Of a stretch of DNA of 64,000 nucleotides, positions 1 through 64,000 are shown piece by piece (the first letter of the stretch is position 1; each line of letters starts with the position of its first letter). The DNA is from Blastocatellia bacterium (GTDB lineage: Bacteria > Acidobacteriota > Blastocatellia > UBA7656): assembly GCA_045807725.1 (NCBI GenBank), contig JBJMGV010000132.1, positions 7,151 to 71,150 of the forward strand, in the 5' to 3' direction. The position numbers were made by a program, and so were the translations under genes. The notes under the pieces are model-generated. The model made no database searches. It saw only the letters and a list, made by a program, of their open reading frames with translations, and was not told the origin of the DNA.

Positions 1-15
1 AAATACGTTTACGGA

Positions 16-426: not shown

Positions 427-476
427 CCGAAAACCACGAGCCGCGCCCGCCGCGTAGTGCCAGAGTGATACGAGCG

Positions 477-15210: not shown

Positions 15211-15251
15211 CGCGAGCAATGCTTACTTAATCCAGACGGGAGATTGACGAG

Positions 15252-33203: not shown

Positions 33204-33298
33204 TCATGCCTCTGTCAGCGGCCAAAGACGGAGTCATCGAATCAAACGATGACTGCCTGATGTTGGGATTGCCACCCTGACTGCTCTCGGTAGCTTCG

Positions 33299-40310: not shown

Positions 40311-43300
40311 ATGGACGAATACAGCGTAACTCAACCCACACTGCTGACATCGCGGCTGGCGTCGTTGAAACCCTTCGGCGGTTATGAGATTGAAGGGGAA
40401 CTCGGGCGCGGCGGCATGGGGGTCGTTTATCTGGCCCGCCAGGTTGAGCTGAACCGCCGGGTCGCGCTCAAGATGCTAACCGGCCACTACGGGGCGGACG
40501 AGCTGCGTCGGTTTCAGGAAGAAGCCGAGACAGCGGCGGGGCTGCATCACACCAACATCCTGCACATCTATGAAGTGGGCGAGTTTGAAGGCGCGCCGTT
40601 CTTCTCGATGGAATACATCGAGGGCGGCACGCTGGCAGATAGTCTGCGCAAAGCGTTGCCCTCGCCGCGTCAGGCTGCACAGTTGTTGATCCACATTGCT
40701 CGCGCGCTGCACTATGCTCATCAAAACGGCATCATCCATCGGGACATGAAACCGGCCAACGTGCTGCTCGACGCCGACGGCGTGCCGAAGGTTGCCGACT
40801 TCGGCATCGCGAAACGGCTGATGGATGACAGCCACCTGACACGTTCCGGCGCAGTGATTGGGACACCGACTTACATGGCTCCCGAACAGGCGAAAGGCAA
40901 TAGCCGGCACGTCGGGCCAACGGCGGATGTCTATTCACTGGGCGCGATTCTTTACGAGATGCTCGCGGGCCGCCCGCCTTTCCTGCCGGAAGACAGTGAG
41001 ACATCCATTACATTGCGTGTCTTGAACGAGGACCCGGTTTCGCCGGCATGGCACCGGCCAGAGATTCCACGCGACCTCGAAACGATCTGCCTGAAGTGCC
41101 TTGAGAAAGAGCCGCGCAACCGTTATGTGAGCGCAGCGGCATTGGCCGAAGACCTGCGCCGCTTTCTCGATGATGAATCGATTCTCGCGAGGCCGCCGAG
41201 CACCATCGGCAGCAGCATCAAGTGGGTGCGGCGGCACCCGTGGAAGTTTGTTGCGGTGGTGATGGTGCTGTTTCTGGTCGTCGCCGGCTCGGTGCGGCTC
41301 GCGCAGTGGGAGCTTTATCAGCGCCCGCATCTGGAATATGCATCGCTGGTTGATTGGACCAATGGCAGCCTTGAGCCTATCAAGAGGATTAGTTTGGAGA
41401 GCGGCTCACAGCGCGGCGGATACTTGCGGCTGACGCGGCGTGGCCGATACGGTCCCATCATCAAAGTCGAAGCCTTGAATGCGCGCGGCTACCCCGCCGT
41501 GCTGCGTCAAATAATGGTTGATGACATGCTGCCGGTCTACATCGAGCGTTTGATGGGCGCGCAGCCCTACTCCGAATCACGCCCGGAGACCAACATCGTC
41601 GAGCTGCTGTATGACGATAAAGATAACGCGGTGGAAGCGGTCGGGCGTGACCGCAACGCTCACATCAACTGGCGTATTCTCTACGACCATCGCAGCGACT
41701 CTGGCCCTTCAGGGCGCACGGCGCGGGCGCGCTTCGTTGACGCGCGCGGCTTTGATGCCGCCAGTCGCGGGGGCGCGTCGCAAATGGAATTCGAGCGCGA
41801 CGCTGCAGGCCACGATGTGAAGATTCGCTTCTTTAACAATTTCGGCAAGCCCGCCGCCAATGGTGAAGGCGTCTACGGCTGCACCCTCGAACGTGACGGC
41901 ACGGGCCACATCACCCGCCTGATCAACCTGGGGCCTGATGACCAGCCTGCGCCGAATCGTATAGGGCTGACCGAGTTCGCCATCCGTTGGGGGATAGAGA
42001 ACAATGGACGAAAAGAGAATTGGATAGAAATACGCGACGGCAATGGGCAGCCGACCTTGTGGAAGGGAATCGCCGCCTTCGTGTTTGAACTCGATGATAA
42101 GGGCAATGCGATGCGCTCGATCAATGTCGGCGCGGATGGGCAGCCGGTGCGCGATGCGGCAGCGCCCTGGTCGGCAATCGAACTGAAGCGCAACGAGCAT
42201 GACGAACTGACCCAGCGCATCTATCTCAAGGCCGACGCCGACGGCTCGCTCAAACAGATACTACAAAACGACATCAGCTACAACGACTTCGGCCACCCGT
42301 CAGAGATGAAAACGATAGGCGCGGGCGCAGGGTGGACGGCCTGGCAGCGCGACGAGAAGGGCAACATCACAGAGGAGAAGACGCTCGATGCCAACGGCCA
42401 GCCGGTCGCCAATGATAAAGGTTATGCGATCACCCGCTTCACCTACACGTCCGTGCCGCAGGGCTTTCGTGTCGAGCAGACCTACTTCGATGCGAACGGC
42501 GCGGAGACGTTTAACAGCGACGGCTATCATCGTTTGATTAACGAATACGATGTTGCCGGGGCGTTGCGGCAGATGGTTTATGCCGAATACGACCCGGCGC
42601 GGTTCAAGTACTATCGGTTTATCAGCGAGCCGGAATATGACCCGCAAAGCCGGCTTCGTCACATGATAAACCGCTACGAAGATGCTCAGGGACAGTTGGC
42701 CGCCAACGCCGGGCTGACCTTTATTGCCAGCGACGTTACTTACGATGATAACGGCAAAGTATTCGCCGAGTGGCGAACCTTCAGCGACCCGAAAGATTAT
42801 GGCGCGTCCTTCTTGCGCCTCGATACCGAGTGGCAAGCCAACGGCAAGATGAAGCGCCGTGTGCAGCAGTTCTGCGATGCCAATCGCCAGCCGCTATCTA
42901 CGCTTCCCAGTGGCTACGGCGCGCACAAAGAAGAAGAGTTCGATGCGAACGAACAGCGGCAGCGCGTCTATGAAACCGGGTTCGACGAGAACATGGTTGG
43001 GTTCAGCACGCGTGAAGCAAAGTTTTCCGGCGGCAATCTGCAAAGCGTCACGCACACGCGCAGCAATGGAACTGTTCTCAACTCTGTGCGCGTCATCATC
43101 ACCAGCATCACGCCGTCGCCGGAGCAACCGAAATCGGCGGCGCTGAAGCCCGGCGATCAACTGGTCGCCGCCAACGGCAAGCCGGTGACAAGCGCGCAGG
43201 CATGGGTCGCCGCAGGGAACTTCCCCGGCGGCTGGCTGGAAGTCTTGCGTGAAGGCCAGCGCCTTCGCATTGATGGTTTTGGCCCCGGCGATCTAGGGTT

Positions 43301-43334
43301 TCTACTACAAGACCGCGCCCCGGCAGCGCCCTAG
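40311..43334 (+). CDS. Ser/Thr protein kinase with large extracytoplasmic repeat region and C-terminal PDZ-like domain
   Basis: Kinase motifs (GRGGMGVVYLA, HRDMKPANVL, DFGIAK), a TM helix (VAVVMVLFLVVAGSV), ~650-aa region of degenerate DANGQP/DxNGxP beta-repeats, PDZ-like terminal segment (LKPGDQLVAANGKPV). Confidence 0.85.
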   Translation: MDEYSVTQPTLLTSRLASLKPFGGYEIEGELGRGGMGVVYLARQVELNRRVALKMLTGHYGADELRRFQEEAETAAGLHHTNILHIYEVGEFEGAPFFSMEYIEGGTLADSLRKALPSPRQAAQLLIHIARALHYAHQNGIIHRDMKPANVLLDADGVPKVADFGIAKRLMDDSHLTRSGAVIGTPTYMAPEQAKGNSRHVGPTADVYSLGAILYEMLAGRPPFLPEDSETSITLRVLNEDPVSPAWHRPEIPRDLETICLKCLEKEPRNRYVSAAALAEDLRRFLDDESILARPPSTIGSSIKWVRRHPWKFVAVVMVLFLVVAGSVRLAQWELYQRPHLEYASLVDWTNGSLEPIKRISLESGSQRGGYLRLTRRGRYGPIIKVEALNARGYPAVLRQIMVDDMLPVYIERLMGAQPYSESRPETNIVELLYDDKDNAVEAVGRDRNAHINWRILYDHRSDSGPSGRTARARFVDARGFDAASRGGASQMEFERDAAGHDVKIRFFNNFGKPAANGEGVYGCTLERDGTGHITRLINLGPDDQPAPNRIGLTEFAIRWGIENNGRKENWIEIRDGNGQPTLWKGIAAFVFELDDKGNAMRSINVGADGQPVRDAAAPWSAIELKRNEHDELTQRIYLKADADGSLKQILQNDISYNDFGHPSEMKTIGAGAGWTAWQRDEKGNITEEKTLDANGQPVANDKGYAITRFTYTSVPQGFRVEQTYFDANGAETFNSDGYHRLINEYDVAGALRQMVYAEYDPARFKYYRFISEPEYDPQSRLRHMINRYEDAQGQLAANAGLTFIASDVTYDDNGKVFAEWRTFSDPKDYGASFLRLDTEWQANGKMKRRVQQFCDANRQPLSTLPSGYGAHKEEEFDANEQRQRVYETGFDENMVGFSTREAKFSGGNLQSVTHTRSNGTVLNSVRVIITSITPSPEQPKSAALKPGDQLVAANGKPVTSAQAWVAAGNFPGGWLEVLREGQRLRIDGFGPGDLGFLLQDRAPAAP

Positions 43335-52100: not shown

Positions 52101-53105
52101 CTATTTTCTCAGCACTTCAAAATAGTGGTAGGCAATCTCTTCAGTTGTTCCTTGACTGGTCATTCCCTTGAGGAGCAACTCGTAATCGCCGGCCTTGAGC
52201 AGGCGTGCCGGCAGATTCAAGATGACGGCTCGCCCGGCGCGCACACGGTGCGCCGCTAAATCGCCTTGCGACCAGACCTGCGCCCCACCCGGCGCGCGAA
52301 GCTCAGCGCCGAAGCTTCGGTATTCATCTTCCGGCTCGATGCCGACTTCGACTTTCACCCTTTGCGCCGATTGAGGCAGTATCAGCTTCGGGCGGGCGCT
52401 GTCGTTGCGTGAGAGGCCCGGCCATAAGGCCAGCGAGACGATGGCAGCAGGCGGGGGGCGGGTTGTGGATTCTTCCAACTGGCGCTGGAGTTCACCGATC
52501 ACTTGCTGGCTGCGCTCGCGCTCGTCGCGCTCGCGCTCAAGCTCGGTGGACATCTCTTCGCGGCGCGCCCGCTCGTCGGCGACCTGCTGTTGGAGAGCGT
52601 GCTCGTCGCGCTCGCGCGCCTGTTGCTCTGCGCGAAGCCCCGCAAGCTGCGCGCGCAGGCGAACGCTATCTGTAATCAGCCATGCGCCACCGATCATGAC
52701 CAGCACAGCGGCGGCGGCTAGCGCGTATCTGGCCACCGGGTTGAGTCCCGCCAGAAAGGCTCTGACAACGCCCGGCCATGTGATGGAGGCTTTAACGCCC
52801 GACTGTCGCGCCCCTTTCTCTACTACCGCGAACTCAGGCGCGACGCGGGCTAAAGCTCTGGCGAATTCCACCTTTCGGCGTCGCTCTGCCGAGGCAAAAA
52901 AGCGGCCCTCGAACTGCCCGCGCTCGCGCTCAGAGAGTTCCCTTCGCACATAAGCATCGATCAAATCGCTCTCTGCCGCCTCTATGCTTCGCAGGCATAG
53001 CGGGTCTTGAAAGGCGCGCTCTTCGACCTCTACCTGCTCTTCTTCCGTGAGATCGCCAAGCAGGTAGCGAACGAGCAACTCTTCGCTGAACGAATCCACT
53101 CTCAT
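52101..53105 (-). CDS. Single-pass membrane anti-sigma-factor-like protein (paralog of 63170..63937)
   Basis: Acidic N-terminal cytoplasmic domain (LLGDLTEEEQVEVEERAF...DLIDAYVRRELSERERGQFEGRF), one TM helix, coiled-coil ER-rich segment, C-terminal extracytoplasmic domain; sits directly downstream of an ECF sigma gene. Confidence 0.6.
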   Translation of the reverse strand: MRVDSFSEELLVRYLLGDLTEEEQVEVEERAFQDPLCLRSIEAAESDLIDAYVRRELSERERGQFEGRFFASAERRRKVEFARALARVAPEFAVVEKGARQSGVKASITWPGVVRAFLAGLNPVARYALAAAAVLVMIGGAWLITDSVRLRAQLAGLRAEQQARERDEHALQQQVADERARREEMSTELERERDERERSQQVIGELQRQLEESTTRPPPAAIVSLALWPGLSRNDSARPKLILPQSAQRVKVEVGIEPEDEYRSFGAELRAPGGAQVWSQGDLAAHRVRAGRAVILNLPARLLKAGDYELLLKGMTSQGTTEEIAYHYFEVLRK

Positions 53106-53164
53106 GCTTAAAATGTCCCTTTATAGAATAAGTGGCAAAAACCGCCTATTCATCACAAGGCGCG

Positions 53165-53791
53165 TCATTTTTCCAGACACTGCTCGACGCATGCCTGGAG
53201 CTTTTCTCTGAGACGTAGCGCACGCATCCTTAGCGTGTTGACCGGGACCTTGAAGCGGTCGGTCAGCCGCTTGCGGTTTTCTATCTTGGTTCCTTTCTCT
53301 CCCTGATAATAGGCGATGATCAACTCGCGGTTATCGGCAGGCAGATTTTCCAGACATTGGCGCAGGCATTCAATTGGCGCTTCCGACTCTGAAGCATCGT
53401 CGGCGAGGGGTTGCGAGTTGGCCATCTCACTCATCGCCTGTTGCTCCCTGGCCCGTTCTTTGCCGATCTCCAGCAGGAGCAAGCGCGCCACGCCCATACA
53501 ATAAGCGGATGGGGTGCGAACCTCTTCGCCTGCGGCCAGCTTTCTGGCCACACGGTTCATGGTTTCGTCGGCGTGGTCTTCAGGAAACGGACAGCCGCGC
53601 CATTCAAAAAATCGTATCAGGTTGCCGCGAACCTCAAGGTATTTCTCGCCGGCGCTGTCGCGGTCTTCCCCGAAAGCGGCCAGCAACCTATCGAACGCGT
53701 CTTGCGTTAAGGCCCACCTGAGGCGCGGCACGGAAGCCGCCGGCGTAGCTGCCGATTCGCTTTCGATGTCTCCCCTGCTCAGCCCTTCCAT
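53165..53791 (-). CDS. ECF-type sigma-70 family sigma factor
   Basis: Region 2-like core (NRVARKL...AYCMGVARLLLLE) and region 4 HTH (LPADNRELIIAYYQGEKGTKIENRKRLTDRFKVPVNTLRMRALRLREKL). 18 bp downstream of the TPR-CHAT gene. Confidence 0.75.
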   Translation of the reverse strand: MEGLSRGDIESESAATPAASVPRLRWALTQDAFDRLLAAFGEDRDSAGEKYLEVRGNLIRFFEWRGCPFPEDHADETMNRVARKLAAGEEVRTPSAYCMGVARLLLLEIGKERAREQQAMSEMANSQPLADDASESEAPIECLRQCLENLPADNRELIIAYYQGEKGTKIENRKRLTDRFKVPVNTLRMRALRLREKLQACVEQCLEK

Positions 53792-53809
53792 CGCTGCCTC
53801 CGCGTCCGA

Positions 53810-56800
53810 TCATTTCCACTCGCCCTGAAGCGTGAAGGCGGCCCAGTAGTGAGGGGCCATCCAGCGTTTGTCTTTCCACATCGAGACCTGAGCCGCGCGC
53901 AAGGCGGCGGCGGGCCTGAGTCCCTGCTTCAACATCGCTTCATAGAAACGCCCCATGAACTCAGACGTAGCCCGGTCGTCAACCTGCCACAGGCTCGCCA
54001 CGACGCGCGGCGTGCCGGCGTACATAAAGCCGCGCGTCAGCCCCACCAGCCCTTCGCCTTTGATCTCTTTGCCGAGCGCCGTCTGACATGCGCTGAGCAC
54101 CACGAGGTCGGCTTGCAGTTTCAAGTTATAGATGTCGTAAAGCCGCAGAAAGCCATTCTGTGCGTGGCCCTGCTCGTCTACGAGCGACAAGACTACCCCG
54201 GACAACTCCGGGTGATGGTTGTTGATCAAGCCGTGCGTGGCGAAATGAACGATGGCATAGCGGGCCAGTTCGGGGCTGGTCGCTGCCGCGCGGTTGGCGG
54301 CGAAGTCTACCGCTTCGAGCTTCTTGCTTTCGGGCACGAGGCGCATGATCTGGTCGGCTTCCTGTCGGCTGAAGCGCAGCCTGACGAAACCGCGCAGCCC
54401 CAATTCGGTGGCCGACCTGTTGACATCGCCCGTCGTCTCTGAGGCCGCCGTCGCCCGGCTCTTGCTCGCGCGTCCGATTCTCGGATCATCGCTATCAAAG
54501 ACGGGGTCGGCGAAAACGGCGACAGCCTTGTCAGCCGGTTTGCGCCCGCCGATCTCTCGCCGCAGAGCCGCCAGCACGGACGCCGAAGGGAGAGTGATGA
54601 TCTCGTGATCCGCGATCAGCGGCGACGAGACAGCGCCGGGACGCGGGGTGGGCAGAGCCGCGAAGGCTGTGTATTGCAGCATTCCTTCACCAACGATGAC
54701 CAGCCGTTTGTTCTGTAGTTCGGCAGCCACAGGGCCTAACAGCATACGGCTCAACAGGGCGGCGGCTTGCGGGTAATCGGTAGCGGCTTGCTCTATTCGT
54801 TTGCGCCTTTGTTCCGGGGTTTCGCCGATGGGCGACTGGTTGCGCGCCGTCAGCAGTTCGTAGACGCGCCGCGCCGCCTCTTCGATCTCCGCCCGTTTGG
54901 GCAGTTCAAAACTTTGTATCGAAGCCGGCGTCACCGCCCAGAGGAAGCTCTTCTCTTCGCCAAGCGCGTATTCCAGCAGCAGCGTCTGCTCGTCGAGCAG
55001 ATCGTGCTGAAGCGCTTCGAGGGTCAGCGGGGCCGGCTCAGTCAGCGCGGCGTATCGCGGGCTGATCTGCCGTATCTGCGCCTGGGTCTGCTCGTAGTCT
55101 GTCGTGAGCGTGTTGATCTCTTTAGCCGCCGTCGCCGCCTGTTCTTCGGTGTGCTTGCTGCTGAGCAGGCGCATCTGGCCGTCCGCCTTGTCGGAGATGG
55201 CTTGTCTTAGCAGCCGCTCGCGTTCAAGCAAGGACGGATCAACCCCTTCACGAATTTCACTGCTGGCTTCGGCGAGCATTTCGAGCAGGGATCGCGCACG
55301 GCCCCGCTCGCTCGCCTGTAAGGCGGCGGCGTCGAAGCCTGCCGAGGGCTGCTGTTTGTGCATGCGCATCAAGAGGTCAACATAAAACTCGTGCGACTTG
55401 CGAACCGACGCGAAGAAGGCGGCGCGCAGTTGATAGCTCTTGACGTTGACGCGCAATGACTCGACCGCCGCCAGCGCCGCCTCGATGCGACGGCGGGCCT
55501 CAATGAGGTTGCCGCGATCACGTTCGAGCCGCGCCATATGCGCCAGCACTCCCGCTTCATTGTTCGGATCGCCGATGGCGCGCGATATTTCCAATGCCTC
55601 GTTAAAGCAATCGAGCGCCTTCTGCGGCTCGCCCAGTTCCCGGTAGAGCGCGCCGACGTTTTTGAGCGCGCTTGCCATCTGACGCCGATTGCCGACGGCG
55701 CGATGCAAGGCAACCGACTGATTGAAATAATCAAGCGCCTGCTGCTTCTCTCCGAGGTTCGTGTAACAGCTAGCGATGTTGTTGAGCGAGACCGCTTCGC
55801 CGTCGCGGTTATTCATAGCGCGGCGTAGCGCGAGCGCGCGCTGGTTGATCTCAAGCGCCTTGCGAAAATCTTTCAGGTCGGCGTAGTTGACGGCGATGTT
55901 GTTGAGGACGTTCCCCTCGCGATACTGGTCGCCGGCGGCGCGAAAGATCTCTAGCGCCTGATTGTAGAAGTCAATCGCTTTCTGATACTCGCCCAACGTG
56001 CCGTAGACCCAGCCGATGTTATTGAGCGCGATGGCGTCGCTCTGGGCGGGGCCTAGCTGCTTGTGAATCACCTGCGCCTGGGTGTAGAGGTCGAGCGCCT
56101 TCTGATAATCGCCCAGGCCCGAATAGGCCGTGCCCATGTTGTTGAGGACGGTCGCCTCGCTCGAACGGTCATTCAACTGTCGCCTGATTGAAAGCGACTG
56201 CTGACAGAGGTCTATCGCCTTCTTATACTCGCCGAGGTCGCTGTGGATCACGCACTGGTTATTGAGCAGCGAGGCCTCTTTTCGCACGTCGCCCAGCGCG
56301 GCCAGCACCTTGCGCGACTGGTCAAAGAAGTCGAGCGCCTTCGGCCAGTCGCCCATGTACCCATAAGCCATGCCTATATTATTAAGCGTGCCGACCTCGC
56401 CGACGCGGTCGCCACTCGCTCGCCTGAGCGGCAACGCCTGATTGAATAGCTCAAGCGCTTTCTTCTTATCCCCGAATTCGATGTAGACCTGGCCGGTGAT
56501 GTCGAGCGTAATGGCTTCGACCTTCTGCCCCAGGCGACGCGCTTCTTCGCCGGGCTGACGGGCCGCGTCATGCGCAACGGGCAGGGCGCGCTCCGAGAAG
56601 TCGAGCGCCTTCTGCTTGTCGCCGGCACCAATGTAAGCGGAGCTGATCAGGTAGAGCGCGGTGGCTTCCCATGCCGGGTTTTTAGCCGACTGGCAGAGCG
56701 GGAGAGCCTGCTGGTATTTCTCTATAGCCTTCAGCCGCAACTCGGTGGTCGCTTGCCTGCCAAGCAGTATGCCTTCAGCGATCAACCCCTGAGCGGCGAC

Positions 56801-57328
56801 CAGGCTCTTGTCCTGCGCGGTCGCGGCTCGCAACTCCTGAACCTTAATCTCGTAGCGGCCCGCCGGGGCGGCTGGGTCGGGCGACCGCACCTCCAGCCGA
56901 TAGCTCCCGCCCGCCTCGGTTACGAACGTCACCAGTTCCAACTCGCCTATGCTGAAGCCGTCTGACTCGACGACCTTCTTGCCATCTGGAGCGAAGGCCG
57001 CCAGCGCGACGTTGATGCCGCGCTGATCGACGACCACCTGAACATATTGGTCGGTGGCGAGTCTAAGCTGATACGAATGTGTCTCTCCGCCGTTAAGCCC
57101 TCGTTCGATGGGCTTAGCGGCTTCGAGCACGCCGGCATTACTTTGATCCTGTGGCGCGGCACCATTCGCCTCGCCGGATCGTTGCAGCCGAGATGCCTCT
57201 GTGCGCGGATAAGCGGCGGGAGCCGAGAGCGCCAGGATCATCAGGCTCAGACCTAGAATGACGCCCTCTCTTAGTGAATGGCGAGCCGCCTGGGCTGCTC
57301 TTATCGCTACTATTGCCTGCTGTAGCAT
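53810..57328 (-). CDS. Membrane-anchored TPR repeat / CHAT domain (caspase-like clan CD peptidase) protein
   Basis: N-terminal signal anchor; more than 500 aa of TPR repeats (repeating ALxxxQxAL, NNIGxxY); C-terminal CHAT domain with His (HFATHG) and Cys (VVLSACQTALG) dyad context and the terminal HYWAAFTLQGEW motif. Confidence 0.85.
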   Translation of the reverse strand: MLQQAIVAIRAAQAARHSLREGVILGLSLMILALSAPAAYPRTEASRLQRSGEANGAAPQDQSNAGVLEAAKPIERGLNGGETHSYQLRLATDQYVQVVVDQRGINVALAAFAPDGKKVVESDGFSIGELELVTFVTEAGGSYRLEVRSPDPAAPAGRYEIKVQELRAATAQDKSLVAAQGLIAEGILLGRQATTELRLKAIEKYQQALPLCQSAKNPAWEATALYLISSAYIGAGDKQKALDFSERALPVAHDAARQPGEEARRLGQKVEAITLDITGQVYIEFGDKKKALELFNQALPLRRASGDRVGEVGTLNNIGMAYGYMGDWPKALDFFDQSRKVLAALGDVRKEASLLNNQCVIHSDLGEYKKAIDLCQQSLSIRRQLNDRSSEATVLNNMGTAYSGLGDYQKALDLYTQAQVIHKQLGPAQSDAIALNNIGWVYGTLGEYQKAIDFYNQALEIFRAAGDQYREGNVLNNIAVNYADLKDFRKALEINQRALALRRAMNNRDGEAVSLNNIASCYTNLGEKQQALDYFNQSVALHRAVGNRRQMASALKNVGALYRELGEPQKALDCFNEALEISRAIGDPNNEAGVLAHMARLERDRGNLIEARRRIEAALAAVESLRVNVKSYQLRAAFFASVRKSHEFYVDLLMRMHKQQPSAGFDAAALQASERGRARSLLEMLAEASSEIREGVDPSLLERERLLRQAISDKADGQMRLLSSKHTEEQAATAAKEINTLTTDYEQTQAQIRQISPRYAALTEPAPLTLEALQHDLLDEQTLLLEYALGEEKSFLWAVTPASIQSFELPKRAEIEEAARRVYELLTARNQSPIGETPEQRRKRIEQAATDYPQAAALLSRMLLGPVAAELQNKRLVIVGEGMLQYTAFAALPTPRPGAVSSPLIADHEIITLPSASVLAALRREIGGRKPADKAVAVFADPVFDSDDPRIGRASKSRATAASETTGDVNRSATELGLRGFVRLRFSRQEADQIMRLVPESKKLEAVDFAANRAAATSPELARYAIVHFATHGLINNHHPELSGVVLSLVDEQGHAQNGFLRLYDIYNLKLQADLVVLSACQTALGKEIKGEGLVGLTRGFMYAGTPRVVASLWQVDDRATSEFMGRFYEAMLKQGLRPAAALRAAQVSMWKDKRWMAPHYWAAFTLQGEWK

Positions 57329-57457
57329 GGGCCTCCAATCGGTGTGCTACGGATCAGCAAACGACTCTGCGAGGCACCTACTATACCTCCACTCAGCAGA
57401 TGAATTCAAAACTAAGAGCGCTTCTAAATCAGACCGCATGAGAAAGGCCCAAACGCA

Positions 57458-57595
57458 TTGGCCACAGAGGCGCAAAGGCAGAGAGAAGATCACTAAAGAA
57501 GTCCTGATATTCTCAACATGTGTTATTCCCGCTCGGTGTCTCTGTGCCTCTGTGGCCAATCTTCCCTGTCCCCATCTCATCTGCTTCGATTTAGA
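57458..57595. repeat. ~100-bp dispersed repeat, copy B (inverted relative to 48468..48568), preceded by a short direct partial copy that makes it a local hairpin
   Basis: gaagtcctgatattctcaacatgtgttattcccgctcggtgtctctgtgcctctgtggccaatcttccctgtccccatctcatctgcttcgatttaga matches the reverse complement of copy A. Confidence 0.7.
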
Positions 57596-58161
57596 CACTC
57601 AGGAATCCAGCCGGTCCATTGTCCAATACGGAGGACCGTGGTTTAAGATCGAGGTTGACATAACGAGAAGACCATCGTAGAGTAGCCGCGCTTCATCGTC
57701 CGTGCGGAATGAATAACGCGGGCCGGCCTCAATCAAAGGCAATTGCAAAGTTCGATTAAATCATCCGGGGATGATCCTGTCAGGCAGCGGAGCGAGGTCT
57801 GCCGCTCGTAACCCCGGGCTGTCACGCTAACAACGAAGCGGTTGCGAGGTAACGGAGCGCATCGCGCATCGGCTTTCGCGTCTCTCTGTGTCAGGCCCAA
57901 ATCGCAGCGCCATAGGTGAGCACGAAACGCGCCCGGATGGCGTGCCGTTGTGAGGTCACTTTCACGGCGTTTCGCCGCCGCGACGGTGAATGGCGGGTCG
58001 AGACTTTCAACGCCAGGCGAGTTTACTCGAAATGATTTCTCGTATTTGAGCATTCAAGAATGGTTGGCAGTTTTACCGGCAGGGCGCGCCGCCTCCCCGG
58101 ACACGCTGTCGGAGCCAGCTCGTTCAAAGCCCCAGTCTGACAAAAAGGAGAGTAAGCACCG

Positions 58162-59946
58162 ATGAGCGAACCGAAAGAATGGACTCTGATGTTCTATTTC
58201 GCAGGCGATAACAATCTAGCCCCCCTTGTCGTCTCCCTGCTCAAAGAGATCAAAGACGCCGGCTCCCAGCCGGATACCGATGTCCTGGTCTATTTCGACC
58301 CTAACGAGTTGGGCGTACCGACGCGCATATTCAATGTGAACCATGGCAGCAAGAAAAGGAAGAAAGCGCAAATCGGTCAAGGCACAGACCCCTTCGTGCA
58401 TAACATGAGGAGTGACTCTGTTGACCTGGATAAGATGAAGGTCGTTCCCGGCACGTTCACGGAGAAAATGTCCCGGATGCTCAAATTTCCAGATGAGGTG
58501 ATGGCGGAAGAGTCGTTAGAAACTTTTCTCGGCTTCTGCCGCGAGAAGTATCCGGCTAAACGCTACATGCTTTTTCTTCTCGGGCACGGCCTGGTGGTCG
58601 GCAATGATGCCTTTTTGCCGGATGACCATCCGATGAGCGCCATCACTCTGTGCAGACTCGGAGGGATTGTGAGAGGCTTCACCAAGGCATTAGGAAAGGA
58701 CAGCTCTTTGGAACTGCTGGCTCTACATAGCTGCTCGATGAGCGCTATCGAAGTGGCCTACGAGCTGAAAGGCACAGCGAAGTCTATGATGGCCTCAGAA
58801 GGCCCGGCCTTCGTCGGCAGTTGGCCCTATCGCCACCTGTTGATCAAGACCTTCAACGTTTCTGAAAAAGCGGTGGAAGACGCGCAGCAGAAGGCCGCGC
58901 AGATGAAGGCGGGTCAGGCTAAGGCGGTGATCCTCCCGATCATCAAGGCCCCGGCCCTGGTCAAGAAGCTCTATTACCTGACCGTGTATAACGCGGTTGA
59001 TTTTCTGTTTGCCGGCTACTCTCACGATCTGGCGTTTTGTAGTCTTAACCCCGGAAAAATAAATCGGCTCATGACCGCGCTCCACCAGTTGATCGTTCTG
59101 CTCAACAAGGGACTGAAGCAGACGAACGATAAGGTCAAGGCGCGCGCCGAACGCGGCAAGCGCGTCAAAGAGATGGTGCTGCTGGCCCACTGGGAGGCAC
59201 AAAGCTACTGGGGCGAGAGCTACACCGACCTTTACGACTTTTGCCGCTGCCTGCGCGAACACTGCAAGCCGGAGGATGAGCTGGCGCAGGCGTGTTGCGA
59301 TGTGATGAGTGCGCTCAAAGCGGTCGTCCTTTCACACAATTTCGGCTCGAAGGTGCAGTACTCGCATGGCCTCTCGATCTTCTTCCCTTGGTCAAAGCCG
59401 GCTACGGCGGCAGAGACGGAGAGTGATGAGACTAAGAAGCAATATGAAAGTGGCGACAATAACCAGTCCACCGCCCCCGAACGGCCTAAAGAGAGATATG
59501 AAAAACAAGGCATGGGAATTTGGGAACGGTATGAGCAGTATGCCTTCACGCAAGACTTAAAGAAGGTGGACAAGGAAAATTCCTGGTTCGACTTCCTCGA
59601 CATCTACTTCGAGGTGACCAAGCGCAAGTTCCGCCAGGAAGAAGATGGCACGCCGCTCCTACCGAAGTTTGTAAGCAGTAGGGGAAGCAGTCCACCGCTC
59701 GGCGCGTTGGCCGGCCTCTTATCCAGGGATAAGCCGGATCCGTCACTCGACAAACCGGACCCGTCAGTCGGAGTTGATTACGCCTGTTTGGCAATTAAGA
59801 ACTACCCCGACGAGAGGGATCTGAGAAAACGGTGGGAGGAAGCCAGAAAAAAGGCAGGCGTTACCCAACTGAAGAGCGCCCTCCAAAACCAGATCGATCA
59901 GCAAATCACCGCCGCAGCTCAAGAAGTATTGGCCTCGGCGGACTGA
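58162..59946 (+). CDS. Clostripain-like (C11 family, clan CD) cysteine peptidase, cytoplasmic
   Basis: N-terminal WTLMFYFAGDNNL (C11 signature), His-Gly (LLGHGL) and SC(S)M Cys motif (LALHSCSMSAI) in clan-CD order; AAGGAG RBS upstream; no signal peptide. Confidence 0.7.
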   Translation: MSEPKEWTLMFYFAGDNNLAPLVVSLLKEIKDAGSQPDTDVLVYFDPNELGVPTRIFNVNHGSKKRKKAQIGQGTDPFVHNMRSDSVDLDKMKVVPGTFTEKMSRMLKFPDEVMAEESLETFLGFCREKYPAKRYMLFLLGHGLVVGNDAFLPDDHPMSAITLCRLGGIVRGFTKALGKDSSLELLALHSCSMSAIEVAYELKGTAKSMMASEGPAFVGSWPYRHLLIKTFNVSEKAVEDAQQKAAQMKAGQAKAVILPIIKAPALVKKLYYLTVYNAVDFLFAGYSHDLAFCSLNPGKINRLMTALHQLIVLLNKGLKQTNDKVKARAERGKRVKEMVLLAHWEAQSYWGESYTDLYDFCRCLREHCKPEDELAQACCDVMSALKAVVLSHNFGSKVQYSHGLSIFFPWSKPATAAETESDETKKQYESGDNNQSTAPERPKERYEKQGMGIWERYEQYAFTQDLKKVDKENSWFDFLDIYFEVTKRKFRQEEDGTPLLPKFVSSRGSSPPLGALAGLLSRDKPDPSLDKPDPSVGVDYACLAIKNYPDERDLRKRWEEARKKAGVTQLKSALQNQIDQQITAAAQEVLASAD

Positions 59947-60026
59947 TTCCGCCCGGCTGGCTTTGCCTACTGCGGCTGTCCTGTTGCCGGCGAGCGCGTG
60001 GCTCGCGCTCGCCGGCGGTGCAAGCG

Positions 60027-63000
60027 ATGATTAAACGACGTCTACTCCTGCTGTTGATGCTTATCCTGTTGCTGCCCGCCGCTGCTTTGCGGTCGCAGGA
60101 CGAGGACGTGCTGACCCGCGAGAGCGATGAGAGCGCAACGACAATCGCAGAGCGACAGCGCGCGTTGACGGCGCTTTTGGCCGCCTCACAGCAGATGCGT
60201 GAAGCCGGGCAGGCGGCGCAGGCGGCGCGCTTTCTCAATCGCGCCGGTCGCTTGCATCTCCAACTCAGCTCGCCGCACGACGCCGTAGCCGCTTACCAGG
60301 AAGCGCTGTCGCTTGCCGAACAGTCGCTCGTCCCGGCTATCAAGGCCGATAGCCTTAACGGCCTGGGCGCAGCGCACAAGCATCTGGGCGACTGCGATCA
60401 GGCGCAAGCCTTTCTCCAACAGGCTATCGTCGTGAGCGAGCAGAGCGATTACGTCGCGGGCAAAGCCGAAGCGTTGCTCATACTAAGTGATTGTCAGACC
60501 TACAGCGATCACGCGCTGGCGCTGCGAACGGCGCAGCAGGCGCTCGCGCTCTTCCAGTCTATAGACCATAAATGGGGCATCGCTAAATCCTATGCCGCTG
60601 TCGGCGAGTATCAGTTCGATCAGAACAACTTGCCTGAGGCTACCGCCAGCTATGAAGCGGCGTTGAATCTTTGGCGCGAACTCAAGCTGTCAGACCAGCA
60701 GGCCGAGGCGCTCATCAGCCTCGGCTACATTGAATATCGCCGAGGGGCTTGGCAAAACGTCTTCGCGTTTTTCACGCAAGCGCAAGCGTTGCTCGACGAA
60801 CAGGCCGAGCCTTACAAAATGGGCCAGATTCATGCCGGCCTCGCCAATGCTTTTATCGAAAGCGGCATGCCAGAGACCGGGCTGGCCAAGTACATGCAAG
60901 CTCTTGATGACTATAACCAGACACATAACCGGCGCGCTGTGACGGCGATGATCTGGGGCATCGGTAGGGCTAATTACATTTTGGGCAACTATGAGGAAGC
61001 GCGTCGCCATTTAGAGAACGCGCTCGCAGAGGCTGAATCCATCAAAGAAAACAAGATCGCTGCCCTGTGCAATGACTTTTTGGGACAGACCGCGAGGGCA
61101 ACGAATGACCAGACCGCCGCCCTGCACTATTACGAGGTCGCGCTCAACTTGTATACGCAGGCGGCTAGCCCTATGGAGGCCGCGCGCGTGCTCGCTTTGA
61201 TAGGACAGGTCTACGAGCAGCAAGGGAAAGTTGAACAGGCACGGGCGTTTTACCAAAGCGCGTTGAAAACATTCCGCGCCCTCTCGCATCAGATTAACCA
61301 GTCGGCTACTCTTTATGCGCTGGGGAGCCTGGAGTTGAAGCAGCGCCGCTTAAATCTGGCGGAAGACTACTTGCGCCAGTCCATCGAAGTGACTGAGAAC
61401 ATCCGCCGCGTCTCCACGAGCCGGGACCTGACGGCTGCCTTTTCTGCCACCGTCTACGACCGCTACGAAAAGTATATTGACTGTCTGATGCAAGAGTATG
61501 AAGCGCGGCCAGCGCCTGACCTGCTCGTGCGCGCGTTCGAGACTAGCGATGTCGCGCGCGGGCGTTCGTTGTCCGAGCTGCTGCGGGCGACCGAAACCAA
61601 CCTTGTGCCCGGCCTTGACCCGCAACTGGCCGAGCGCGAAAAGTCGCTCCGTCTGCTGCTGCGGGTCAAAGAAGACGACAAAGTTACTCTGCTCAGCAAA
61701 ACCTATAAAACGAAAGAACTGGTTGCCTTAGACGCTGACCTGACGCGCTTGCAGGCTGAGTATAAAGAGGTCGGCGAAGCGATACAGGCGCGCTATCCTG
61801 CTTACGGGCCGGTGACTCGCCCGGTGGCCTGGAGTCTACAGCAAATTCAGGAGCAGGTCGTTGCCGACGACGAGACGGTGCTGTTGGAATATAGTTTCGG
61901 CTCAGACCAGAGCTACGCCTGGGCCGTCACGCGCGAGGGCATCAAGAGTTATCGCTTGCCCGCCGGGGCGCTCATCAATGAAACGGCGCAAAGAGTCTAT
62001 AAGCTGCTGGCCGTGCCGCCTGACCCGAATCAGACGAATGATCTCAACAACGCGCTTCAGGAATTGAGCGCGATGGTTCTGTCGCCGGTCGCCGCTGAGC
62101 TAAACAAGCGCCGGATTCTGATTGTCGCCGATAGTGCGCTACATTACATTCCTTTTCAGGCGTTGCCTACGCCTCAGCCGGGCGGCGAATCGCTTGTCGC
62201 CGATTACGAAATCATCAACATCCCTTCGGCCTCCATTCTCGGAGAGCTGCGCCAGGAGGCAACGCGGCGGCAGCCGACGAAAATGCTGGCCGCGTTCGGC
62301 GACCCGGTCTTCGCGTCGAACTATGCGCAGGCCAGCGGCGTGAGCAGCGGGCCTGTGGTCGCTATGCAATCGCTTGAGATGGCGCGCTGGCAAAACGCTC
62401 TGCGCGACGTTGCGCTCAACGCCGGACCCAACGGCGACACGCTCGACCCCGCAGCGATCAAGCCGCTCTTTTATGCCAAGCGCGAGCTGGCTACGTTGCG
62501 CGATGCGGCGGCGGGCGGCGAGACGGCCATCTCGTCGGGCTTCGCTGCCAGCCGCGAACAACTGCTGCACACCGACCTGTCGCAATACGCCATTCTTTAT
62601 TTCGCCACACACGGGCTGCTCGATCCGAAGCGGCCCGAAAACTCCGGCTTGTTGCTATCAACGGTGAATCGTGACGGGCAAGCGCAGAACGGCTTTGTCG
62701 GGTTGCAAGACATCTATGGCCTGCGCGCGCCGGTTGATCTGGTCGTCCTGAGCGCCTGTCAGACGGCGCTCGGCAAAGACGCGCGCGGCGAAGGCTTGCT
62801 CGGCCTCACGCGTGGGTTTATGTACGCCGGCGCATCCAGTGTAATGGCCAGTCTGTGGAAGGTAGACGACGAAGCGACCGCCGAGCTGATGCGCCAGACT
62901 TACGTCAATATGCTGCAAGAGGGAATGCCCCCGGCGGCGGCTTTGCGCGCGGCGCAGAATAGCATTCGTCAAAGGCCAGAGTGGCGCTCGCCTTATTACT

Positions 63001-63191
63001 GGGCCGGGTTCACGTTGCAGGGGGAATATCTTCACGTCATCCGCCCCGCTTCTGCCACAGGCGCTGCCGGTTTATATGGAAGGGGAATAGTAATCGGGGG
63101 GTTGATGCTGCTGGCCTTGATGGCCGTGTGGTTTTATCGCCGCCGCCAGCGGTCGCAAGCGATCATTAGCTATTCGATGACGAAAAAGTAA
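60027..63191 (+). CDS. TPR repeat / CHAT domain protein with N-terminal signal peptide and C-terminal TM anchor
   Basis: ATG at 60027 gives signal peptide MIKRRLLLLLMLILLLPAAALRSQ (the ORF track start 59832 overlaps the upstream gene); TPR array; CHAT motifs (YFATHG, VVLSACQTALG, YYWAGFTLQGEY); C-terminal hydrophobic helix plus basic tail. Confidence 0.85.
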   Translation: MIKRRLLLLLMLILLLPAAALRSQDEDVLTRESDESATTIAERQRALTALLAASQQMREAGQAAQAARFLNRAGRLHLQLSSPHDAVAAYQEALSLAEQSLVPAIKADSLNGLGAAHKHLGDCDQAQAFLQQAIVVSEQSDYVAGKAEALLILSDCQTYSDHALALRTAQQALALFQSIDHKWGIAKSYAAVGEYQFDQNNLPEATASYEAALNLWRELKLSDQQAEALISLGYIEYRRGAWQNVFAFFTQAQALLDEQAEPYKMGQIHAGLANAFIESGMPETGLAKYMQALDDYNQTHNRRAVTAMIWGIGRANYILGNYEEARRHLENALAEAESIKENKIAALCNDFLGQTARATNDQTAALHYYEVALNLYTQAASPMEAARVLALIGQVYEQQGKVEQARAFYQSALKTFRALSHQINQSATLYALGSLELKQRRLNLAEDYLRQSIEVTENIRRVSTSRDLTAAFSATVYDRYEKYIDCLMQEYEARPAPDLLVRAFETSDVARGRSLSELLRATETNLVPGLDPQLAEREKSLRLLLRVKEDDKVTLLSKTYKTKELVALDADLTRLQAEYKEVGEAIQARYPAYGPVTRPVAWSLQQIQEQVVADDETVLLEYSFGSDQSYAWAVTREGIKSYRLPAGALINETAQRVYKLLAVPPDPNQTNDLNNALQELSAMVLSPVAAELNKRRILIVADSALHYIPFQALPTPQPGGESLVADYEIINIPSASILGELRQEATRRQPTKMLAAFGDPVFASNYAQASGVSSGPVVAMQSLEMARWQNALRDVALNAGPNGDTLDPAAIKPLFYAKRELATLRDAAAGGETAISSGFAASREQLLHTDLSQYAILYFATHGLLDPKRPENSGLLLSTVNRDGQAQNGFVGLQDIYGLRAPVDLVVLSACQTALGKDARGEGLLGLTRGFMYAGASSVMASLWKVDDEATAELMRQTYVNMLQEGMPPAAALRAAQNSIRQRPEWRSPYYWAGFTLQGEYLHVIRPASATGAAGLYGRGIVIGGLMLLALMAVWFYRRRQRSQAIISYSMTKK

Positions 63192-63937
63192 CTGCCGCTG
63201 ATGCGTTGCTCGCTGCCATCGGCTCGGATGGCGAAAAGCTTCAACGCGTACTGCTCGCGCGCGAGATGCGCTGCCGGAATGACGACCCGCACCGACTGAG
63301 CGTCTTCTTCGACGATCTCCACAACTCGCTTCTCGCCATTGGTATTCTCTAACTCGACCCGATAACGCGCGGCCTGCGGCGGCGGTTGCGGCAAGATCAT
63401 GGTGACGCGCAGGGCGTCGGTATTCGACGCCAGCTTGATCGTATCTGTCGGCGCTCCTTCGGCGCGATTGCTCTGGCTGAGCGTCAGGGTCAGCGTGGCG
63501 AATGTGCGCGGCGGTTGCGGCGGGAAGAACCACAAAGCGCCGCTGATGAGAATGACGACGGCCACGGCGGCAGCCGCGCGCGCCGCCCACGACGTGCGGC
63601 CCCAAAACGCGCCGAAGCGCTCGGACCAGCTTGGCTCCGGCGCAGCGTCACTGCCACCTGACTGAAGCGCGGCGTCGCGTTCGTCAAGACAGCGCAAAAG
63701 CGCCGCCGCCACCGCGACACGTTCTTGTCTGGCTTCCGTCACCATATAATTTAGCTCGAAGCCCTGCCGCCGTTCGGGCGTGAGCTGATCGCGCAAATAC
63801 GCTTCGATCAAATCGTCTTCGACCAGGGCGATCTGATCGGGCCACTCCTCTTCGGCGAAGCAGTCGTCTTCAAACCGCTCCATCTCTTCTTTGGGCAGTT
63901 CTTCTAACAAATAAGCGATGATTCGTTCGTCAGTCAT
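63170..63937 (-). CDS. Single-pass membrane anti-sigma-factor-like protein (paralog of 52101..53105)
   Basis: N-terminus LLEELPKEEMERFEDDCFAEEE...DLIEAYLRDQLTPERRQGFELNY is similar to the 52.1 kb paralog; one TM helix; C-terminal extracytoplasmic domain. Convergent with the CHAT gene (22-bp overlap). Confidence 0.6.
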   Translation of the reverse strand: MTDERIIAYLLEELPKEEMERFEDDCFAEEEWPDQIALVEDDLIEAYLRDQLTPERRQGFELNYMVTEARQERVAVAAALLRCLDERDAALQSGGSDAAPEPSWSERFGAFWGRTSWAARAAAAVAVVILISGALWFFPPQPPRTFATLTLTLSQSNRAEGAPTDTIKLASNTDALRVTMILPQPPPQAARYRVELENTNGEKRVVEIVEEDAQSVRVVIPAAHLAREQYALKLFAIRADGSEQRISGSYFFVIE

Positions 63938-64000
63938 TCTCTAACGCCAGCCAAATCTGATAGGCGGTATTGCCCACTGCATCGCGCCACTGCTCATGAG

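Follow-up and report, generated by a model that had tools for sequence, protein, structure and literature searches.

Two paralogous cassettes of TPR-CHAT protease, anti-sigma-like and sigma factor genes in a Blastocatellia genome, and a candidate role in protease-gated sigma release

The 64,000-nucleotide (nt) stretch of DNA analysed here (the window) is part of a metagenome-assembled genome of Blastocatellia (Acidobacteriota), a soil acidobacterium. One region of it encodes two paralogous TPR-CHAT proteins (CHAT1 and CHAT2), two paralogous anti-sigma-like membrane proteins (AS1 and AS2), one divergent sigma factor resembling those of extracytoplasmic function (ECF) type (sigma1) and one C11 peptidase. 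The best explanation of this region is that it holds two paralogous, self-contained signalling cassettes of Acidobacteriota, in which the CHAT protein, the anti-sigma and the sigma factor are very probably direct functional partners. To the more specific reading that the CHAT protein cuts the anti-sigma to free the sigma factor, which would make the cassettes a split, two-polypeptide counterpart of DdvA from Myxococcus xanthus, we assign a probability of about 0.5. The G+C content is even across the window, and the genes flanking the region are ordinary chromosomal genes.

Gene order and conserved linkage

All six open reading frames (ORFs) of the region were found at the coordinates and on the strands listed in the first-pass annotation, which had been made from the DNA letters. 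Cassette 1 is a single minus-strand operon in the order CHAT1 > sigma1 > AS1, and the gaps of 18 nt and 59 nt given for it are correct. Cassette 2 consists of a sigma2-AS2 operon facing a C11-CHAT2 operon, with sigma2 just outside the window. AS2 and CHAT2 are convergent and their 3' ends overlap by 22 nt, so that the two genes do not form one operon; the earlier statement that each CHAT gene sits next to a paralogous membrane protein gene stood, AS2 and CHAT2 being oppositely directed. The cognate sigma gene of AS2 would begin beyond base 64000, a placement taken from orthologous loci and not read from the contig itself. As all orthologous AS2-type loci carry their own sigma gene of the same family, 85–110 nt upstream of AS2, the window probably contains just one of two sigma genes. 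Likewise, the C11 peptidase, first described as an extra, turned out to be integral to the second cassette, its gene being present in all 11 of the AS2-type loci with sufficient sequence to judge, at AS2 identities as low as about 40%; on this count, the idea of a chance neighbour was rejected.

Linkage of cassette 1 was analysed in the best 80 loci from 158 relatives, which were obtained by scanning one genome per GTDB species. Nearly all of these loci belong to Acidobacteriota, with Blastocatellia and Pyrinomonadaceae next to some Terriglobia, Bryobacteraceae and Ca. Angelobacter. For cassette 2, three genomic loci and 34 metagenomic loci were available. A sigma gene directly upstream of the anti-sigma gene, at gaps of about 50 nt, was found in 75 of 77 informative loci. 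The CHAT gene was adjacent to this pair in 55 of 65 informative loci, with the order CHAT > sigma > anti-sigma in 32, sigma > anti-sigma > CHAT in 22 and a convergent arrangement in one; in two further loci it was found elsewhere in the flank, and 15 of the 80 loci were too short to judge. Apart from one outlier of 321 nt, reading frames in the CHAT-adjacent loci overlap or lie at most 38 nt apart, the distance from the CHAT stop to the projected sigma start ranging from a 61-nt overlap to a 29-nt gap. In 8 of 20 loci with the order sigma > anti-sigma > CHAT, the end of the anti-sigma gene and the beginning of the CHAT gene share 4 nt.

Three AS1-type loci on long contigs have unrelated flanks and keep the trio of CHAT, sigma and anti-sigma, one of them as sigma > anti-sigma > CHAT. 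The layout of cassette 2, with sigma > AS2 followed by the convergent CHAT2 < C11, was intact in every locus long enough to judge. Pairing by type was strict, AS1-type proteins always occurring with CHAT1-type and AS2-type proteins always with CHAT2-type proteins, and anti-sigma and CHAT are encoded by separate genes in the window and in all 100+ related loci. The neighbourhood proved to be conserved across Acidobacteriota in several gene orders; a lack of such conservation was among the findings that, according to the first-pass annotation, would refute its reading, and none of these was encountered where they could be checked. The maintenance of linkage between separate genes despite shuffling of their order, together with overlapping reading frames and strict pairing of types, makes a direct functional partnership likely.

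Two further observations were made on gene order. On the metagenome contig Ga0187894_10000488 (locus L096, 2199–9896), a cassette-1-like set in the order sigma > anti-sigma > CHAT (minus strand) lies immediately beside a cassette-2 set, in an arrangement unlike that of the window; there may be a tendency for cassettes of the two types to be neighbours. An ORF of about 335–342 amino acids (aa) was found directly upstream of the sigma gene in locus L004 (8227–9234; order sigma > anti-sigma > CHAT) and in the CHAT-less L041 (6215–7225) and L054 (6185–7213). In L004 its Pfam matches were to TPR repeats only, and it may be a fourth component of that sub-type.

Domain identities, predicted topology and structural class

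Over their N-terminal 98 aa, AS1 and AS2 share 33% identity (E 8e-10), the similarity of their C-terminal domains being weaker. The N-terminal 92 aa of AS1 and 87 aa of AS2 align near gap-free, with one 5-residue gap after Met1, and in both anti-sigma families no other part is as well conserved as this domain of about 90 residues. Upon isolation from the full-length sequences, 19/19 N-terminal domains matched zf-HC2 (Pfam PF13490; best E 1.1e-8), which is the N-terminal domain of class I anti-sigma factors. The isolated domain of AS1 reached 25.4 bits (cutoff 22.2) in two stretches, suggesting an internal duplication; full-length AS1, at 18.9 bits, stayed below the cutoff, and full-length AS2 gave no match. 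The H-x3-C-x2-C zinc motif was absent from AS1, AS2 and the family consensus, which would make both anti-sigma domains of a non-zinc kind. When 1.84 billion proteins were searched with a profile of the N-terminal domain, 9,890 cluster representatives were retrieved at E ≤ 1e-3, which points to a large, essentially unannotated family. The AlphaFold2 model of AS1 (predicted local distance difference test, pLDDT, 79) revealed a helical N-terminal domain, a transmembrane (TM) helix running into a charged helix of about 65 residues, a proline-rich break and a C-terminal beta-sandwich of immunoglobulin (Ig)-like type. The C-terminal domain of AS2 matched CopC weakly in Pfam (E 0.027).

An alignment of 105 full-length anti-sigma proteins from both paralogue families was used to assess invariance. 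Conservation of at least 95% was reached by 13 columns of the cytoplasmic domain, by three that hold aromatic residues from the core of the beta-sandwich and by one arginine (Arg). The latter (R233 of AS1, corresponding to R158 of AS2) was present in 105/105 proteins and is the sole fully invariant extracytoplasmic residue; its loop, taken to be flexible, is of low confidence in the AS1 model (residues 231–240, pLDDT 64). Clan CD peptidases that cut after Arg include separase, clostripain, gingipain R and metacaspases. Considering this preference, the invariant, exposed Arg looks like a conserved P1 site. Arg233/Arg158 is, on alignment, a candidate protease recognition or P1 residue and could equally have a binding or structural role.

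The two large proteins gave Pfam matches to CHAT (PF12770) far above the cutoff of 24 bits, namely 230.1 bits (E 4.8e-68) for CHAT1, alongside seven TPR_12 stretches, and 228.5 bits (E 1.5e-67) for CHAT2, alongside TPR. They are 33% identical over 975 aa, and a beta-sandwich near the N-terminus of CHAT1 matched PPC weakly (E 0.015). The catalytic Cys of the CHAT domain aligned to that of separase. His1032 and Cys1081 were invariant in alignments of 23 and 46 sequences, the two residues were kept in 80/80 linked CHAT genes where the alignment covers both, and many further positions of the CHAT domain were invariant. Judging by these residues, the CHAT proteases look active.

Hydropathy analysis revealed an N-terminal signal-peptide-like hydrophobic segment in both CHAT1 and CHAT2, which was kept in 85 of 115 CHAT1 orthologues. 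A C-terminal TM anchor was absent from CHAT1 and the CHAT1-type proteins (all 115), and CHAT1 may be soluble in the periplasm after signal-peptide cleavage. In CHAT2, a C-terminal TM helix is followed by the tail YRRRQRSQ, and both the helix and an Arg-rich tail were kept in all seven CHAT2-type orthologues examined. The anti-sigmas possess one TM helix, with the anti-sigma domain on its N-terminal side. From this, the CHAT bodies and the C-terminal domains of the anti-sigmas are predicted to be extracytoplasmic. In the NCBI annotation (1143 aa), CHAT1 begins at Met30, inside the hydrophobic signal segment (N-terminus at window positions 57241–57328); since CHAT1 orthologues (1169–1199 aa) keep the longer N-terminus, the start codon of the deposited record is probably misplaced, masking the export signal.

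The AlphaFold2 model of CHAT1 (pLDDT 82; predicted template modelling score, pTM, 0.70) shows, in this order, the helix of the signal segment, a disordered linker, the beta-sandwich, about eleven TPR pairs, a helical linker and the CHAT domain, into which three helices (812–826, 838–863 and 865–871) are inserted early. A Foldseek search with the model gave as best PDB matches human separase (1.5e-15), DdvA (8rw5, 5.1e-15; 8rot, 2.3e-14) and Csx29 (8eey_B, 4.8e-13), with alignments of about 900–1300 columns; the TPR superhelix followed by CHAT is the separase/craspase-type architecture. Searched against PDB sequences, the CHAT domain alone matched separase only, and weakly, and a 23-sequence CHAT profile matched TPR proteins only, with DdvA and Csx29 not among the matches. 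The relationship to separase, DdvA and Csx29 is thus at the level of architecture and fold.

For sigma1, all NCBIfam matches were to ECF models and below the cutoffs, namely TIGR02989 (1.1e-11; 44.9 bits, cutoff 124.55), TIGR02937 (1.1e-7; 31.6 bits, cutoff 42.9) and the type III-E sigma model (1.1e-5); in Pfam, Sigma70_r4_2 alone was matched (17 bits, cutoff 25.7). Together with six neighbours of AS1- or AS2-type genes, sigma1 forms one alignable family, of which all seven members match ECF models only and below cutoff, among them TIGR02989 (best E 4.6e-13), TIGR02937 and SigZ. The type III-E CRISPR sigma model was weakly matched by four members (best E 7.3e-6, far below cutoff). In an hhalign comparison of the family with Escherichia coli RpoE, region 4 alone was aligned, at a probability of 8%; region 2 was weakly aligned to an ECF sigma in PDB 6dxo, the sigma profile giving E of about 0.2–0.3 against PDB. 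On these matches, sigma1 is classed as a putative divergent ECF-like sigma factor.

The C11 protein matched Peptidase_C11 in Pfam (E 6.5e-22, 79 bits, cutoff 25.8), and its His142 and Cys191 aligned to clostripain (9cip) and were kept in 12/12 orthologues, so that C11, too, looks catalytically intact. No hydrophobic segment was detected by hydropathy. There is no coding room upstream for a signal peptide, since the ORF, like those of all its orthologues, starts directly with the first strand of the fold. The C-terminal part of about 180 aa (residues 411–594, 59392–59943) had no Pfam match and contains the short repeat DKPDPSLDKPDPSV; orthologues range from 436 to 637 aa, so that the tail is variable. 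At residues 189–193 (HSCSM, 58726–58740), His is found two residues before the catalytic Cys (LHSC), whereas clostripain has Asp at this position (FDAC). The Asp of clostripain is thought to set its Arg specificity, and the P1 or substrate specificity of C11 may differ accordingly from that of clostripain.

With respect to domain content, the first-pass annotation was largely borne out. The identification of two large TPR-CHAT proteins and of a C11 peptidase was confirmed by Pfam matches above the cutoffs, the small membrane proteins are paralogues as claimed, and their N-terminal domain, described there as anti-sigma-like, is of zf-HC2 type. The His/Cys dyad is present, and CHAT bodies and anti-sigma C-terminal domains were predicted in the same extracytoplasmic compartment. 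Membrane anchoring, proposed for both CHAT proteins, is supported for CHAT2 by its C-terminal helix and was not established for CHAT1, which has no such anchor and whose N-terminal segment may be cleaved. For the sigma factor, matches were to ECF models alone and below every curated threshold. The features of both cassettes are compiled below.

Features of the two cassettes (positions within the window; residue numbers refer to the protein named).
Feature	Length or residues	Position	Strand	Basis or remark
AS1, single-pass anti-sigma-like protein	334 aa	52101..53105	minus	
AS1, cytoplasmic tandem zf-HC2-type anti-sigma domain	1–92	52830–53105	minus	
AS1, TM helix	about 123–146	52668–52739	minus	hydropathy
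AS1, long charged helix	147–212	within 52101..53105	minus	AlphaFold2 model
AS1, extracytoplasmic Ig-like beta-sandwich	221–334	52104–52445	minus	
AS1, Arg233 codon, loop between strands beta1 and beta2	233	52407..52409	minus	alignment
sigma1, divergent ECF-like sigma (putative)	208 aa	53165..53791	minus	
CHAT1, TPR-CHAT protease, predicted exported	1172 aa	53810..57328	minus	
CHAT1, signal-peptide-like N-terminus	1–40			
CHAT1, PPC-like beta-sandwich	70–168			
CHAT1, TPR superhelix	171–626			
CHAT1, helical linker	632–777			
CHAT1, CHAT domain	780–1172			
CHAT1, catalytic His	His1032	54233–54235	minus	
CHAT1, catalytic Cys	Cys1081	54086–54088	minus	
Sigma-70-like promoter candidate TTGAAT-N18-TATAGT, 52 nt upstream of CHAT1		57380..57409	minus	low confidence
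Promoter-like motif GAAAT-N17-CATTC, starting 133 nt upstream of the C11 start codon		58029..58055	plus	low confidence
C11 (clostripain-family, clan CD) cysteine peptidase, predicted cytoplasmic	594 aa	58162..59946	plus	
C11, catalytic His	His142	58585–58587	plus	
C11, catalytic Cys	Cys191	58732–58734	plus	
CHAT2, TPR-CHAT protease	1054 aa	60027..63191	plus	
CHAT2, signal peptide (predicted)	1–24			
CHAT2, CHAT domain	676–1001			
CHAT2, catalytic His	His862	62610–62612	plus	
CHAT2, catalytic Cys	Cys911	62757–62759	plus	
CHAT2, TM anchor, followed by basic cytoplasmic tail	about 1013–1036	63063–63134	plus	
AS2, anti-sigma-like paralogue	255 aa	63170..63937	minus	
AS2, anti-sigma domain	1–87			
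AS2, TM helix	about 117–139			
AS2, Ig-like/CopC-like beta-sandwich	145–255			
AS2, Arg158 codon, invariant	158	63464–63466	minus	

Elsewhere, the window is unusually dense in signalling genes. A canonical ECF sigma factor (33299–33913, minus strand; Sigma70_ECF PF07638, E 3.8e-55) is encoded directly upstream of a Ser/Thr kinase with TPR (30558–33203); this pair (30558–33913) is a known pairing and unrelated to the CHAT cassettes. A protein combining FHA with a trypsin-like peptidase (34359–36146, plus strand) is followed by three Ser/Thr kinases (36226–37494, 38509–40158 and 40311–43334), and a kinase-TPR protein is encoded at 423–2786 (plus strand). In addition, two tandem AMP-binding genes of acyl/aryl-CoA ligase type (13651–16829, plus strand) precede an amidohydrolase gene (16912–18468).

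Proposed mechanism and alternative explanations

The mechanism envisaged starts from a resting state in which the anti-sigma would keep the sigma factor at the membrane. A periplasmic cue would be sensed via the TPR superhelix, and in CHAT1 perhaps via the PPC-like domain as well, leading to activation of the CHAT domain. This would cut the extracytoplasmic domain of the anti-sigma in a site-1 step, for which the invariant Arg of the beta1-beta2 loop is the foremost candidate, and the truncated anti-sigma would then be cleared by intramembrane and cytoplasmic proteolysis, setting the sigma factor free. CHAT2 would be tethered by its C-terminal TM helix throughout, and the C11-CHAT2 operon might itself depend on sigma2, giving positive feedback. 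C11 is the least explained element of cassette 2 and most plausibly works on the cytoplasmic side, for instance by degrading the released anti-sigma domain or by cutting its linker.

Several findings weigh against this mechanism. The sigma1 protein stays below every curated hidden Markov model threshold, and a profile of the anti-sigma domain yielded no anti-sigma match and no detectable solved relative among PDB sequences. No fused anti-sigma-TPR-CHAT protein was found among the best 150 of the 9,890 profile matches, none of which exceeded 641 aa. In 8 of 65 informative loci, sigma and anti-sigma genes occur with no CHAT gene within 4–8 kb, implying that CHAT is not strictly required in cis. 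C11 and the CHAT2 body are predicted to reside in opposite compartments, which makes a simple protease cascade unlikely, and the topology of the CHAT, anti-sigma and C11 proteins was predicted from hydropathy. Finally, the C11-CHAT2 operon is a separate transcription unit with an ECF-like motif of its own, so that C11 and CHAT2 may, at least partly, be controlled by the sigma factor and not act solely as its activators.

This motif has the family consensus GAAAC-N17-CATTA. The pattern G[ATC][AT]A[CT]-N17-CAT[AT][ATC], which was derived after the sequences were seen, occurs upstream of C11 in 10/12 loci, mostly 95–161 nt before the start codon, compared to 0.43 loci on average and 4 at most with shuffled sequences. 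Its AAC-containing box resembles ECF -35 elements such as the sigmaW element TGAAAC. The motif was absent upstream of the sigma2 genes, 9/23 of which are preceded by a sigma-70-like TTGATT-N17-TATnnT. The copy in the window is a candidate promoter from which an ECF factor (sigma2) would transcribe the C11-CHAT2 operon, and one reading is that the sigma and anti-sigma genes are constitutive and C11-CHAT2 is sigma2-dependent. Upstream of CHAT genes of cassette-1 type, TTGAA(A/T)-N18-19-TAT(A/G)(A/T/G)T elements were found in only 7/28 related loci, mainly close relatives (with a 19-nt spacer in L008 and a TTGAAA -35 box in L027), and the sigma-70-like promoter of CHAT1 is of low confidence for this reason.

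The promoter data bear on a rather unlikely, but not negligible, explanation in which the proteases are outputs. Sigma and anti-sigma would then sense by other means, and the CHAT genes, together with C11, would be the conserved local regulon of an envelope-protease response. Separate transcription of C11-CHAT2 from a motif that the sigma2 genes lack agrees with this, as does the finding that no other conserved neighbour is able to serve as regulon, and a paper on the reclassification of ECF sigma factors cautions that a conserved neighbour can be a regulator or else a target (PMC7826278). However, being a target is compatible with being an activating protease under positive feedback. Moreover, in cassette 1 the CHAT gene is inside the sigma/anti-sigma operon, upstream of sigma in one order (32 loci) and, in 8 of 20 loci of the other, sharing the 4-nt overlap with the anti-sigma gene; the type of anti-sigma and the type of CHAT are strictly paired, and the same two modules are fused on one protein in DdvA (PMC11506125). 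Unlikely, too, is a securin-like anti-sigma, whose Ig-like domain would be a tether and pseudo-substrate inhibitor of CHAT, the true substrates being other envelope proteins and sigma release being secondary. The CHAT1 model resembles separase and DdvA equally closely, securin keeps separase inactive (cited in PMC11506125), the invariant Arg loop fits an inhibitory pseudo-substrate equally well, and AS1, with its charged helix of 66 residues, would hold its Ig-like domain at a long distance from the membrane. Yet no candidate substrate is conserved nearby, C11 is not accounted for, and a physical interaction between CHAT and anti-sigma would still be needed, giving a heavy overlap with the cleavage mechanism.

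We consider it improbable that CHAT is a non-proteolytic sensor or scaffold, with the TPR part binding a ligand and signalling to the anti-sigma, and with housekeeping proteases of DegS, Prc or RseP type doing the cutting. The TPR superhelix, with about 11 repeats, is indeed the largest part of the protein, and the active site of resting DdvA is misaligned and incomplete (PMC11506125), but the invariance of His and Cys in all 80 copies and of many other CHAT positions argues for selection on catalysis. A chance adjacency, or one owed solely to common descent of a syntenic block without a functional link, is scarcely credible: nearly all loci are from one phylum and most from one class, but their flanks differ, and the genes of the trio or quartet stay together in three gene orders and at anti-sigma identities as low as about 22–30%. 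The reading in which CHAT cuts the anti-sigma, which was the sensor-protease interpretation of the first-pass annotation, is graded as partly supported; what fell was the view of C11 as an add-on, and the ECF-like motif leaves the proteases as possible sigma targets. A bolder version, which we hold to be unlikely, sees in cassette 2 a two-compartment switch built entirely of caspase-fold enzymes. CHAT2 and C11 would attack the same anti-sigma from both sides of the membrane, perhaps coupled via the TM helix and basic tail of CHAT2, thereby replacing a site-2 protease and ClpXP, and stand-alone cassettes would be the kind of module from which the fused DdvA and the Csx29-Csx30-RpoE system were assembled.

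CHAT-gated sigma release has so far been studied in antiphage systems, that is in craspase, the SAVED-CHAT cascade and DdvA. For DdvA, self-cleavage has yet to be proven, owing to an unknown signal and to the union of protease and substrate in a single chain. The cassettes in the window are a natural split version, with the protease and its presumed substrate as separate proteins, which makes the idea of CHAT as site-1 protease directly testable in vitro. The single invariant Arg is an obvious candidate cleavage site, and more than 100 sequence-diverse cassettes can be used for covariation analysis. If correct, the mechanism would extend the CHAT/sigma logic beyond defence islands to ordinary envelope signalling in Acidobacteriota, which rank among the most abundant phyla of soil and also among the least understood. 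The sigma factors are below the Pfam and NCBIfam cutoffs tested, and cutoff-based sigma censuses may have missed them; given this failure, prior capture of the group in a catalogue is less likely. In the literature searched, no stand-alone exported TPR-CHAT protein paired with a separate anti-sigma and an ECF-like sigma was found, nor was a description of a CHAT-C11 pairing. The main text of the ECF classification (PMC7826278), consulted for an ECF group with CHAT neighbours, makes no mention of CHAT.

Comparison with known systems

In DdvA of M. xanthus, the anti-sigma of the DdvA-DdvS pair and a precedent that the first-pass annotation did not name, a zf-HC2-class anti-sigma is fused to a periplasmic TPR-CHAT part, as solved by cryo-electron microscopy (PMC11506125). 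DdvA assembles as a dimeric arrowhead and controls an adjacent antiphage defence island; its active site lacks a three-helix motif, to which the three helices inserted early in the CHAT domain of the CHAT1 model might or might not correspond. DdvA without its TPR-CHAT domain becomes exposed to RseP, and signal-induced cleavage of the linker by CHAT was proposed by the authors as the site-1 step; their search covered fused proteins only and yielded Myxococcota and one Comamonas (PMC11506125). The cassettes of the window have in common with DdvA a sigma factor of ECF type (putative in the window), the single-pass anti-sigma with an N-terminal cytoplasmic domain of zf-HC2 class, the TPR-CHAT with its His/Cys dyad in the periplasm (predicted in the window), and CHAT as the proposed site-1 protease on the anti-sigma. 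In contrast to DdvA, anti-sigma and TPR-CHAT are separate polypeptides, so that cleavage would be intermolecular and not between the two protomers of a DdvA dimer. The anti-sigmas of the window further differ in having an Ig-like periplasmic domain of their own and an anti-sigma domain without the CHCC zinc site that resembles a tandem repeat, the cassettes are found in Acidobacteriota, and cassette 2 adds the cytoplasmic C11. Neither CBASS nor CRISPR nor other defence genes were found adjacent, PADLOC giving generic TPR-region matches only. The flanks of seven related loci contained unrelated housekeeping genes, and a type ISP restriction-modification gene was found about 9 kb off in L002. 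With the CHAT and sigma sequence profiles, no solved TPR-CHAT chain and no chain of the DdvA entries was matched.

The type III-E craspase comprises the TPR-CHAT protease Csx29, Csx30 and RpoE/CASP-sigma (PMC10028731; bioRxiv 10.1101/2023.06.23.546230). Here as there, a TPR-CHAT protease is genetically linked to an ECF-like sigma factor and a sigma-sequestering protein, and the release of sigma by protease cleavage, known for craspase, is conjectured for the cassettes of the window. In agreement with the first-pass annotation, no Cas7-11, CRISPR RNA or cas gene, nor any cas domain, was found in the window ORFs scanned or, as far as genes are concerned, in the gene lists of related loci, with no dedicated search for CRISPR arrays having been run. 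The CHAT proteins of the window are predicted to be exported on account of their signal-peptide-like N-termini, whereas Csx29 is cytoplasmic, and activation of an exported protease cannot be RNA-guided. Their anti-sigma partner is a membrane protein with a zf-HC2 domain and not a homologue of Csx30.

A type III-B SAVED-CHAT > PCaspase cascade of Haliangium has an associated sigma factor (bioRxiv 10.1101/2023.06.23.546230). This cascade shows that a single module can unite a CHAT protease, a second protease of caspase fold and a sigma factor. Cassette 2 resembles it in encoding, side by side, a CHAT protease, another protease of clan CD and a sigma factor, and it resembles the CalpL-CalpT-CalpS system in the presumed cutting of an anti-sigma by a protease. 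In contrast to cassette 2, both of these systems are wholly cytoplasmic and are activated by cyclic oligoadenylates; in addition, the second protease of cassette 2 is of the C11 and not the C14 family and is predicted across the membrane from CHAT. In ECF54, genes for CHAT-domain, subtilase and carboxypeptidase proteins are found in the genomic context, and proteolytic control of the sigma factor was already proposed (PMC8999054). A conserved CHAT-domain neighbour of the sigma gene is shared with ECF54, which is, however, actinobacterial and was described without an anti-sigma, whereas loci of the window type always have a dedicated one. The sigma family of the window is distinct from ECF54 and far more divergent.

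Classical regulated intramembrane proteolysis of anti-sigma factors is represented by RseA/DegS/RseP and RsiW/PrsW/RasP. Like these (reviewed in PMC7593790), the cassettes have a single-pass anti-sigma with a cytoplasmic sigma-binding domain, as predicted here, and an extracytoplasmic site-1 cut would license the later steps. Whereas the classical site-1 enzymes are the serine protease DegS or the membrane-embedded PrsW, encoded outside the sigma/anti-sigma operon, the site-1 enzyme of the window would be a clan CD protease of caspase fold that carries a large TPR sensor and is encoded inside the sigma operon.

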